From: a virus
Lineage: Duplodnaviria; Heunggongvirae; Uroviricota; Caudoviricetes
IMG/VR virus record: IMGVR_UViG_2585427710_000003
Coordinates: 1-5,827 of that record
Length of the DNA stretch: 5,827 bases
Strand: one strand, 5' to 3'
Under the pieces are notes generated by a model that had not been told where the DNA came from, ran no database searches, and worked only from the letters and a program-made list of their open reading frames with translations. The position numbers and the translations under genes are program-made. Positions 2,336 to 5,667 of the stretch are shown here, piece after piece. Position 1 is the stretch's first letter. Every line of letters begins with the position of its first letter.

Positions 2336-2363
2336 TTGCGGGGAAAGAAGAGTTAAGTAGAAT
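2336..2363 (+). promoter_or_regulatory. Candidate promoter for the hok/mok mRNA (-35 TTGCGG 2336-2341, 16-bp spacer, -10 TAGAAT 2358-2363)
   Basis: Sigma70-like hexamers with correct spacing lie just upstream of a sequence (GGTGCTTGAGGCTGTCTGCC, from about 2371) that resembles the 5' end of plasmid R1 hok mRNA as I recall it. Confidence 0.4.
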
Positions 2364-2424
2364 TGCTGCGGGTGCTTGAGGCTGTCTGCCTCGGGCATGC
2401 CGCCGTAAGGCAGACAGAGAAAAG

Positions 2425-2490
2425 CCCCAGTTAACATTATGCGTCCGGCAGGACGCTTAACATTAATCTGAGGCCATATCTATGACTTGC
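2425..2490 (-). ncRNA. sok: Sok-like antisense RNA (antitoxin of the hok/mok type I TA locus); ends approximate
   Basis: Minus strand has -35 TTGCCT (complement of 2520-2525), a 17-bp spacer and -10 TAATCT (complement of 2497-2502), which would start a transcript near 2490. That transcript is antisense to the mok SD and start (2468-2484) and contains the GCGTCC-GGCA-GGACGC hairpin (2441-2456). This matches the known hok/sok arrangement. Confidence 0.4.
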
Positions 2491-2694
2491 ACACTTAGAT
2501 TAGCCTCTTATGCGCCGAAAGGCAAGGAGCAGCAGGCTATGAAGCAGCAAAAGGCGATGCTAATCGCCCTGATCGTCATCTGTATTACCGTCGTTGTAAC
2601 GGTACTGGTAACGAGGAAAGACCTCTGCGAGGTACGAATCCGAACCGGCCAGACGGAGGTCGCTGTCTTCACAGCTTACGAACCTGAGGAGTAA
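2482..2694 (+). CDS. mok: Mok-like leader reading frame (70 aa), in frame with hok and sharing its stop
   Basis: ATG 2482 has GAGG about 9 nt upstream. The ORF runs in frame into the hok ORF, as I recall chromosomal mok/hok pairs do. The sok target would cover its start. Confidence 0.5.
   Translation: MTCTLRLASYAPKGKEQQAMKQQKAMLIALIVICITVVVTVLVTRKDLCEVRIRTGQTEVAVFTAYEPEE
2497..2525 (-). promoter_or_regulatory. Candidate sok promoter on the minus strand, inside the mok coding region
   Basis: Reverse complement of 2497-2525 reads TTGCCT-17 bp-TAATCT. The position inside mok and the orientation toward the mok start match known hok/sok loci. Confidence 0.4.
2539..2694 (+). CDS. hok: Hok/Gef-family type I toxin (51 aa, MKQQKAMLIALIVICITVVVTVLVTRKDLCEVRIRTGQTEVAVFTAYEPEE)
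   Basis: ATG 2539 with AAGGAG at 2524-2529. The translation has the Hok/Gef signature: N-terminal transmembrane helix, TRKDLCEV, and a ...EVAVFTAYE... tail. From memory it is closest to HokD(RelF)/HokC(Gef). The flanking mRNA elements (leader, mok, terminator) are all present. Confidence 0.9.
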   Translation: MKQQKAMLIALIVICITVVVTVLVTRKDLCEVRIRTGQTEVAVFTAYEPEE

Positions 2695-2762
2695 GAGACC
2701 AGGCGGGGGAGAAATCCCTCGCCACCTCTGATGTGTCAGGCATCCTCAACGCACCCGCACTT

Positions 2763-2790
2763 AACCCGTTTCGGCGGGTTTTGTTTTTTC
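2763..2790 (+). terminator. Rho-independent terminator of the hok mRNA
   Basis: AACCCG (2763-2768) pairs with CGGGTT (2775-2780), followed by TTGTTTTTT (2781-2789). It sits about 70 nt after the hok stop. Confidence 0.7.
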
Positions 2791-5242: not shown

Positions 5243-5303
5243 ATCGCGTATGTTTCGTATAAATCTGATATTTTGCCTATTTTGTACGCGATGACAAAAT
5301 AAG
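5243..5303 (+). promoter_or_regulatory. Candidate late promoter (pR'-like) and Q-utilisation region
   Basis: AT-rich stretch between the Q stop and the terminator, with a -10-like TATAAA at 5258-5263 and a weak -35. Q-dependent late promoters typically have a poor -35 and a short terminated leader. This is inference only. Confidence 0.3.
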
Positions 5304-5331
5304 AAAAAAACTGCCGCCAGGCGGTTTTTTT
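5304..5331 (+). terminator. Intrinsic terminator (tR'-like), symmetric with an A-tract and a T-tract, so possibly bidirectional
   Basis: AAAAAAA (5304-5310), then a GC hairpin CCGC-CAG-GCGG (5314-5324), then TTTTTTT (5325-5331). Confidence 0.7.
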
Positions 5332-5454
5332 ATGTCCGAAAATCGCGTCAGTACAGTAAACGCGCTGGCGGCGGTGAATACCGGTCTTTCAGCTTGCTGG
5401 CTTTTTCGACAAGAGTTATTGGTGTGTCACGTTAACCGAAAAAGGGAAAAAGAC

Positions 5455-5652
5455 ATGCTGAAACAGCGGGATATGACAGAAACCGCCAGAGCAGTTTTTA
5501 ATGAATTAAGTGCCACCGAACCGGCGACAGTCGGGGAGATTGCACAGAATACGTACCTTTCACGCGAACGCTGCCAGCTAATACTGACCCAGCTTGTTAT
5601 GGCGGGTCTGGCAGACTATCAGTTTGGTTGTTACAGACGCCTTCAGTCCTGA
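5455..5652 (+). CDS. Small winged-helix protein (65 aa), PapI/FaeA-like putative regulator; cargo gene downstream of the late terminator
   Basis: ATG 5455 has AAGGGA at 5442-5447. The track ORF starts at ATG 5332, directly abutting the terminator T-tract with no SD, so the internal start is preferred. The translation ...TVGEIAQNTYLSRERCQLILTQLVMAGLA... looks like a recognition helix followed by a wing. Confidence 0.5.
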   Translation: MLKQRDMTETARAVFNELSATEPATVGEIAQNTYLSRERCQLILTQLVMAGLADYQFGCYRRLQS

Positions 5653-5667
5653 AGGCTTTTTTATTTG
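5639..5667 (+). terminator. Rho-independent terminator overlapping the stop of the small wHTH gene
   Basis: GCCTTCA (5639-5645) pairs with TGAAGGC (5650-5656) around a GTCC loop, followed by TTTTTTATTT (5657-5666). The stop codon TGA 5650-5652 is inside the stem. Confidence 0.7.

Follow-up and report, generated by a model that had tools for sequence, protein, structure and literature searches.

Positions 2336-2790 of the window (the whole stretch of 5,827 nucleotides of phage DNA analysed here, to which all positions refer) are a complete hok/mok/sok type I toxin-antitoxin locus. Within this family it belongs, as an intact copy, to the hokD/hokW branch, and it is a nin-region accessory gene of a lambdoid, Stx-phage-like E. 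coli prophage. We consider it highly probable that this toxin-antitoxin accessory gene works by a mechanism like those of R1 and hokW, with a likely role at prophage induction. The original prediction of a complete locus was borne out, with all of the listed parts found in place, at a level far above chance. Its bounds also hold, as the start falls at the -35 element of the mRNA promoter and the end coincides with the end of the terminator T run.

Parts of the locus and their genomic setting

The toxin gene encodes a 51-residue protein that matches the entire 42-position Pfam model PF01848 (HOK_GEF) with E 1.6e-23 and 82 bits (cut-off 22), and matches PHROG 251, 'MokW-like host killing', with E 1.1e-32. 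We found 660 database relatives of this protein. It is 94% identical to K-12 HokD, 86% identical to HokW and 41% identical to the Hok of R1, and the core TRK-LCE-R-G-EVA-F is invariant in the alignment of these proteins. The 7 substitutions in 51 residues relative to HokW, and the 3 relative to K-12 HokD, all lie within the membrane helix. The hok Shine-Dalgarno (SD) sequence is likewise invariant in the alignment with 933W, K-12 hokD and R1. Upstream of hok, the leader matches the Rfam model RF01794 over its full length (model positions 1-157 of 157) at 2370-2544, with 114.8 bits (gathering score 59) and E 2e-26. The coding and transcription features are as follows.

2335-2363, + strand: hok/mok mRNA promoter, -35 TTTGCG (2335-2340), 17-nt spacer, -10 TAGAAT (2358-2363); read from the sequence
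2370-2789, + strand: full-length hok mRNA, about 420 nt; 5' end at 2370/2371 by alignment to the R1 +1 position
2420-2490, - strand: Sok antisense RNA, about 71 nt; coordinates carried over from the 933W sokW annotation, with no indels between the two
2470-2473, + strand: mok Shine-Dalgarno GAGG, 8 nt before the mok ATG
2482-2694, + strand: mok ORF, 70 aa, sharing its frame and stop codon with hok; organised like mokW of 933W
2497-2525, - strand: Sok promoter, -35 TTGCCT (2525-2520), 17-nt spacer, -10 TAATCT (2502-2497); at the family-consensus position
2524-2529, + strand: hok Shine-Dalgarno AAGGAG, 9 nt before the hok ATG
2539-2694, + strand: hok toxin CDS, 51 aa, MKQQKAMLIALIVICITVVVTVLVTRKDLCEVRIRTGQTEVAVFTAYEPEE; Pfam HOK_GEF
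2763-2789, + strand: intrinsic terminator of the hok mRNA, stem 2763-2780 (7 bp, 4 of them G-C pairs) followed by a T run; from a terminator scan

The -10 element of the hok promoter ends 7 nt before the conserved 5' end of the message, GGGUGCUUGAGG, which begins at 2370. This 5' end is supported by alignment to an R1-type locus and to 933W, and the Rfam model begins at the same position. Apart from spacer bases the promoter is identical to the hokW promoter of 933W, and a TAnnnT -10 is kept 7 nt ahead of the conserved GG(G)YGCUUGAGG in loci with otherwise unrelated upstream DNA. The Sok promoter, whose -35 element overlaps the hok SD, has the commonest family state at each of its parts: among 48 distinct loci, the -35 is TTGCCT in 32, the spacer is 17 nt in 40 and the -10 is TAATCT in 22. 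A generic sigma-70 consensus scan of the window reported neither promoter, because the hok promoter has only 8 and the Sok promoter only 7 of 12 consensus matches. We therefore accepted both promoters on the basis of positional conservation and of mutagenesis of hokW rather than on consensus strength. In that work, a promoter-less sokW mutant in which the homologous -10 (TAACCT) had been replaced, with primer YO-421, lost antitoxin activity (PMC8621323).

The RNA from the Sok promoter is predicted to fold (-31.9 kcal/mol, z = -5.9) into a long hairpin flanked by an unpaired 5' tail and a U-rich 3' end. The sequence of this 5' tail complements the mok start as well as the loop of the hairpin that pairs the mok SD with its downstream complementary box. 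At the level of sequence, the antisense RNA that had been proposed to run over the mok start from a convergent minus-strand promoter stands, but its size of about 65 nt gives way to 71 nt by homology to sokW. The other proposed transcription features, an upstream promoter, a long structured leader and a terminated 3' UTR, were recovered by promoter position, the Rfam match and the terminator scan, respectively. Insertion sequences and truncations, which affect hokC-type loci and K-12 hokD, are absent from the window locus.

The gene order around the locus, all on the + strand, is DUF1627, DUF4406, hok, DUF968 (YdfU), RusA and the Q antiterminator; the window also encodes a DNA-binding protein and members of several small PHROG families. 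A tRNA scan of the window found no tRNA. Near-identical E. coli prophages (98.4% identity over 96% of the window) carry cI/cro and O-P-like replication genes upstream and a DNA methylase downstream, with a Shiga-toxin A subunit in one case. This places the locus in the interval between the replication genes and Q (the nin region), on the strand transcribed from PR, and the early-region location that had been proposed is confirmed. In the induced or isolated phages examined the hok locus likewise lies between the replication genes and YdfU/RusA/Q, and this position is usual for lambdoid phages.

Predicted folding of the hok mRNA and its comparative support

The predicted full-length mRNA (2370-2788) has a minimum free energy (MFE) of -175.7 kcal/mol, with z = -7.1 relative to shuffled sequences, and its folds contain the following elements.

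2370-2381, + strand: tac (translational activator element), GGGUGCUUGAGG; conserved in 63 leaders
2372-2398, + strand: metastable 5' hairpin of the nascent transcript, tac with the adjacent downstream segment; predicted folds
2382-2417, + strand: stable 5' hairpin, stem 2382-2391/2408-2417; in every fold and in RNAalifold
2422-2428, + strand: ucb (upstream complementary box, anti-SD of mok), AAGCCCC; predicted folds
2503-2507, + strand: dcb (downstream complementary box), GCCUC; truncated fold, and a stem in the Rfam consensus structure
2702-2723, + strand: 3' stem-loop with a 9-bp stem; in every fold
2744-2756, + strand: fbi (fold-back inhibitory element), CCUCAA(C)GCACCC; pairs with tac in the MFE structure

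Three stages can be distinguished in these predictions. When only the first 30-45 nt are folded, GUGCUUGAGGC pairs with GCCUCGGGCAU (-18.8 to -26.1 kcal/mol), in agreement with the nascent tac hairpin of the R1 model (PMC9841398). In the full-length MFE structure, tac (2370-2381) and fbi (2744-2756) form a 12-bp helix with C2750 bulged, and the GCC at 2424-2426 in ucb pairs with the GGC at 2472-2474, sequestering the mok SD. When the RNA is cut just before fbi, tac (2370-2377) instead pairs with ucb (2422-2428), and the mok SD region GAGGC (2470-2474) pairs with the dcb sequence GCCUC (2503-2507). The predicted switch between a closed, full-length form and an open, 3'-truncated form is, element for element, the switch published for R1 (PMC9841398). 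In the alignment with R1, the 3' stem-loop at 2702-2723 corresponds to GGCGGGC-GCAG-GCCCGCC, a stem-loop that stabilises the truncated R1 mRNA (PMC9841398), and by this analogy we expect the 2702-2723 stem-loop to protect the 3' end of the active message after processing.

To compare the window with other loci, we scanned one genome per species and obtained 80 hok loci, from Escherichia, Shigella, Kluyvera, Citrobacter, Photorhabdus, Erwinia, Enterobacter and others. The pair U2373-A2753 between tac and fbi covaries across 62 distinct loci (U-A in 25, C-G in 33, U-G in 3 and a mismatch in 1), and within the stable 5' hairpin the pair 2384/2415 covaries across 63 leaders (A-U in 30, U-A in 24, G-U in 6 and G-C in 2), all of these counts coming from sequences with common ancestry and not representing independent events. 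The second pair is G-C in the window and A-U in 933W. In the Photorhabdus loci the tac sequence GAGG has become GAGA, and fbi has changed to match (CUCUC). Covariation of this kind, between tac and fbi and within the stem, agrees with the covariation that originally underlay the R1 model. From 63 distinct leaders, the tac/ucb stem and the 5' hairpin were the only structures that RNAalifold recovered. Column-wise covariation of the mok SD and dcb was dropped because the 63-leader MAFFT alignment has its R1-type rows out of register at that stem. Together, these analyses establish the presence, intactness, conservation and predicted folding of all the elements of the locus.

Proposed mechanism and likely role at prophage induction

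From the sequence and the literature on R1 and hokW, we infer how the window copy would be transcribed and processed, how it would become toxic and what its biological role may be. A weak constitutive promoter would yield a stable mRNA of about 420 nt, with the metastable 5' hairpin holding tac during synthesis. In the finished RNA, pairing of tac with fbi and masking of the mok ribosome-binding site by ucb would prevent both translation and Sok binding. Slow trimming of the 3' end back to the 2702-2723 stem-loop would then remove fbi, so that tac could pair with ucb and the mok SD could enter the SD/dcb hairpin; mok and hok would be translated in a coupled manner, and the Sok target would be exposed. 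The unstable 71-nt Sok RNA, supplied from the convergent promoter, would pair across the mok start, and the duplex would be destroyed by RNase III. Once the supply of Sok ends, Hok would be made, insert into the inner membrane and collapse it. For R1, 3' processing of the hok mRNA has been demonstrated (PMC9841398); smaller hokW RNAs have also been seen, to which the authors assigned no identity (PMC8621323).

The closest experimental guide to the role of the locus is hokW/sokW. HokW is toxic, and SokW has been detected on Northern blots and counteracts HokW, partly via RNase III and Hfq (Takada et al. 2021, PMC8621323). After mitomycin C treatment SokW disappears and HokW appears in a RecA-dependent manner, and when hokW/sokW is deleted growth arrest comes about 40 min later and the phage yield falls by half (PMC8621323). 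By analogy, Hok made after induction most likely hastens lysis and raises phage release in the prophage of the window. We rank this help with lysis first, with prophage addiction, exclusion of other phages and physiological silence as its rivals; prophage stabilisation and interference with other phages are possible as side effects. The hokW role may not transfer to the window copy, because hokW lies near attR and not in the nin region.

In every context examined, the sense strand of hok is the strand read by antiterminated early phage transcription. The nin-region copies, including that of the window, are co-oriented with the PR operon. hokW, whose neighbours are on the int/xis strand beside attR, is co-oriented with the PL operon, only once the phage genome circularises. 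This co-orientation suggests a simple, testable reason why Hok might be switched on at prophage induction. Upon induction, RNA polymerase reading through the locus could run into the convergent Sok promoter and shut it off, and early transcription could also add hok RNA. If true, such read-through would account for SokW being lost and HokW appearing in a RecA-dependent manner, for which Takada et al. gave no explanation. The one line of evidence is the orientation of copies that share ancestry, and it is weak. We therefore offer as tentative, and on balance rather improbable, the fuller proposal that the cassette is wired into the early transcription programme of the phage with Hok as an induction-timed lysis helper.

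Prophage addiction could instead be the main role: loss of the prophage would leave the cell without short-lived Sok, and the long-lived mRNA would then give Hok and kill the cell. Such post-segregational killing is the established function of hok/sok on plasmid R1, the stable-mRNA/unstable-antisense architecture that it needs is complete in the window, and the 933W record labels hokW with 'prophage maintenance'. However, an integrated prophage is seldom lost spontaneously, and the study of Sp5 reported an induction role and no stability phenotype (PMC8621323). Furthermore, chromosomal loci of intact appearance (hokA of E. coli C, hokB, and hokC of ECOR24) gave no post-segregational killing when tested (Pedersen and Gerdes 1999, as summarised in a 2026 preprint). 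We thus regard addiction as an unlikely main role.

It could also be that all the parts are present but that the locus is physiologically silent, as reported for other chromosomal hok loci; activation would then never occur, and the cassette would be selfish or a relic. Copies of this family often decay, as illustrated by the truncated hokD of K-12 and by hokC-type loci with an element inserted before fbi, and both promoters of the window copy are weak matches to the consensus. The poor sigma-70 matches also count against our main reading. The regulatory elements in the window are, however, all at or near the family consensus; the hokW/sokW pair, which is 90% identical, is an active toxin-antitoxin pair with an induction phenotype (PMC8621323); and 42 of 45 Hok homologues tested were toxic whatever their location (2026 preprint). 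We find silence quite unlikely.

Equally doubtful in our view is abortive infection as the main role, in which a superinfecting lytic phage would shut down host transcription, stop Sok synthesis and release Hok: defence genes are frequent among prophage accessory genes, and R1 hok/sok on a high-copy plasmid lowered the plating efficiency of T4 by 42% and its plaque size by about 85% (as quoted in PMC8621323), but the T4 effect is modest and was obtained at high copy number, such a role is hypothetical at single-copy hokD/hokW-type loci, and hok was not enriched near defence systems in the survey, according to the 2026 preprint. Help with lysis upon induction is therefore the role that we favour for the window locus.

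Prevalence and relation to hokW, hokD and R1

The cassette in the window is already known, and this copy is an ordinary intact one in a common location. Of 5426 complete E. coli genomes, at least 2830 contain its leader (2336-2538) at a coverage of 80% or above, some of them in as many as 8 copies, and 3799 contain the whole 531-nt locus. The locus is also carried by 102 phage records, and at least 24 public contigs encode the identical 70-aa Mok protein. On a larger scale, the 2026 preprint catalogued 44,248 Hok homologues, whose carriers include 3852 prophages and 2501 phages, and found hok to be four-fold enriched in prophages. The suggestion that an intact phage-borne copy is notable was thus not upheld, because the leader is widespread, an annotated and studied copy exists in 933W, the Mok protein is known, the toxin belongs to a PHROGs family and the placement is the usual one. 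The cassette is catalogued in Rfam, Pfam and PHROGs and a near-identical copy has been studied experimentally, so it carries little weight as a discovery. RefSeq-style annotation gives only "Hok/Gef family protein" for such loci and leaves mok, Sok, tac and fbi unannotated, and the leader matches carry the annotation "none". With these regulatory parts unannotated, a reader with only the sequence can mistake an ordinary intact locus for an unusual one.

The closest studied relative is hokW/mokW/sokW of the Stx2 phage 933W, or Sakai prophage Sp5 (AF125520), with about 90% nucleotide identity over 465 nt. Its GenBank record annotates mokW, hokW and a 71-nt sokW. The two loci have the same architecture, mok being in frame and 70 aa long and Sok 71 nt long, and both have in the Sok region an extra 16-nt hairpin that R1 lacks. 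They are identical in tac, ucb, the mok SD, dcb, the hok SD, fbi and the hexamers of the hok promoter; the Sok -10 is TAATCT in the window and TAACCT in 933W. A 27-aa hydrophobic ORF lies just 5' of the locus in both. The 171-aa ORF that precedes hok was considered as a relative of the ORF before hokW in 933W and showed no similarity to it. The cassette common to the two covers only about 2245-2765, and its position differs, being near attR past the tail genes and on the int strand in 933W, and between the replication genes and Q in the window.

The hokD (relF) gene of the K-12 Qin cryptic prophage encodes the most similar of the three toxins compared, and has the same 3' UTR, fbi and terminator as the window; this terminator differs from that of 933W. 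However, K-12 hokD matches the window only from about position 2525 onward, just 5' of the hok SD. It lacks the promoter, tac, ucb, the mok start and the Sok gene, and relBE is found there, with relE in the place of the leader. The Rfam hok/sok leader model gave no match at K-12 Qin hokD. The earlier view of this copy as degenerate and without its leader elements is therefore correct, and the loss of its leader is also stated in PMC12214031. The genomic slot is the same as in Qin, upstream of ydfU (DUF968), which is 85% identical, and Q follows further on in both. Only the window has RusA between ydfU and Q. Between hok and ydfU there is rem in K-12 and a 90-aa protein of PHROG 1212 in the window; identity of this ORF with rem was ruled out, as the two have no similarity. 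The hok genes of K-12 hokD and the window have in common a TACG Tyr codon, the one that TadA edits; the local hairpin at this site is predicted to be weak (-3 to -7 kcal/mol), and our claim is confined to retention of the motif.

The hok/mok/sok (parB) locus of plasmid R1 is the prototype of the family, and its named regulatory elements occur in the same order in the window. An expected difference, a mok frame distinct from that of hok in R1, was not seen, as the R1-type plasmid locus examined has the two in one frame. Comparison with known loci, proposed as a check with the original prediction, showed the leader and promoter elements of the window to be intact. The R1-type Sok promoter, TTGCGC-17-TATCCT, is at the homologous position, and tac differs in a compensated manner, with GGCGC in R1 and GGGUGC in the window and fbi changed to match. 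Compared with the window, R1 has a longer 5' hairpin and no 16-nt hairpin insert in its Sok region. The R1 locus is carried on a plasmid, whereas the window copy is carried by a prophage.

Leader and coding sequence of hok

The Rfam model RF01794, which is named 'sok antitoxin', matches window 2370-2544 (+), that is, the sense strand of the hok mRNA from the translational activator element (tac) to the hok start codon. The same model likewise falls on the hok sense strand in Stx2 phage 933W and in an R1-type plasmid, and because the match is to this strand in all three loci, we conclude that the model describes the hok leader, on the strand opposite to the Sok RNA.

Within the hok reading frame we found one potential recoding site:
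2677-2680, +, TACG motif, formed by the Hok Tyr47 codon TAC and the next base G

TACG is the target of TadA, whose A-to-I editing recodes Tyr to Cys, and editing of K-12 hokD has been reported at about 6% (PMC5630033, PMC12214031). In our alignment the sequence around the window motif is identical to the flanks of K-12 hokD, and folding predicts a weak local hairpin at the site.

L021, L030 and L052 are hokC-type loci from the one-genome-per-species scan. In L021 the 3' UTR before the fold-back inhibitory element (fbi) is replaced by foreign sequence, and in L052 Hok is frameshifted; both are instances of decay, which the window copy has been spared. Separately, PP818812.1 (9161-17644), a record labelled 'Actinobacillus phage vB_Apl-pPE4', contains a lambdoid nin region of the E. 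coli type, and the hok locus there is 92.8% identical to that of the window; the host given for this phage seems questionable.

Sequences flanking the cassette and Q

Directly upstream of the hok promoter lies an unannotated ORF:
2245-2328, +, hydrophobic putative ORF of 27 aa, MTWPEAFITVGIAMAVALVVYSICRWG

Its start overlaps the stop of the preceding 171-aa ORF (ATGA), and a PHROG search with it gave no match. Phage 933W has the same ORF directly before the hokW promoter although the larger upstream ORFs of the two phages are unrelated, which argues that the putative ORF is a passenger of the hok cassette. The two copies differ by about 3 synonymous and about 6 non-synonymous changes, so the ORF is no more than a candidate coding sequence.

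Downstream of Q, the interval 5243-5660 contains two hairpins flanking an ORF:
5313-5325, +, strong terminator-like hairpin
5332-5652, +, ORF of 106 aa, PHROG 331
5639-5656, +, strong terminator-like hairpin

A short late leader RNA, dependent on Q, may terminate at the first hairpin. Some Stx phages carry tRNA genes; a tRNA scan of the window found none.

Toxin-antitoxin modules around hok

In prophages whose Mok protein is identical to that of the window, a RelE/HTH type II toxin-antitoxin pair has been inserted immediately behind hok and is encoded on the other strand (L085-L090, 6316-6997; L003, 3847-4373). The neighbourhood of hok in the nin region seems to be a collecting place for toxin-antitoxin modules. 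In the K-12 Qin prophage, relBE lies immediately before hokD, where the hok leader would be.
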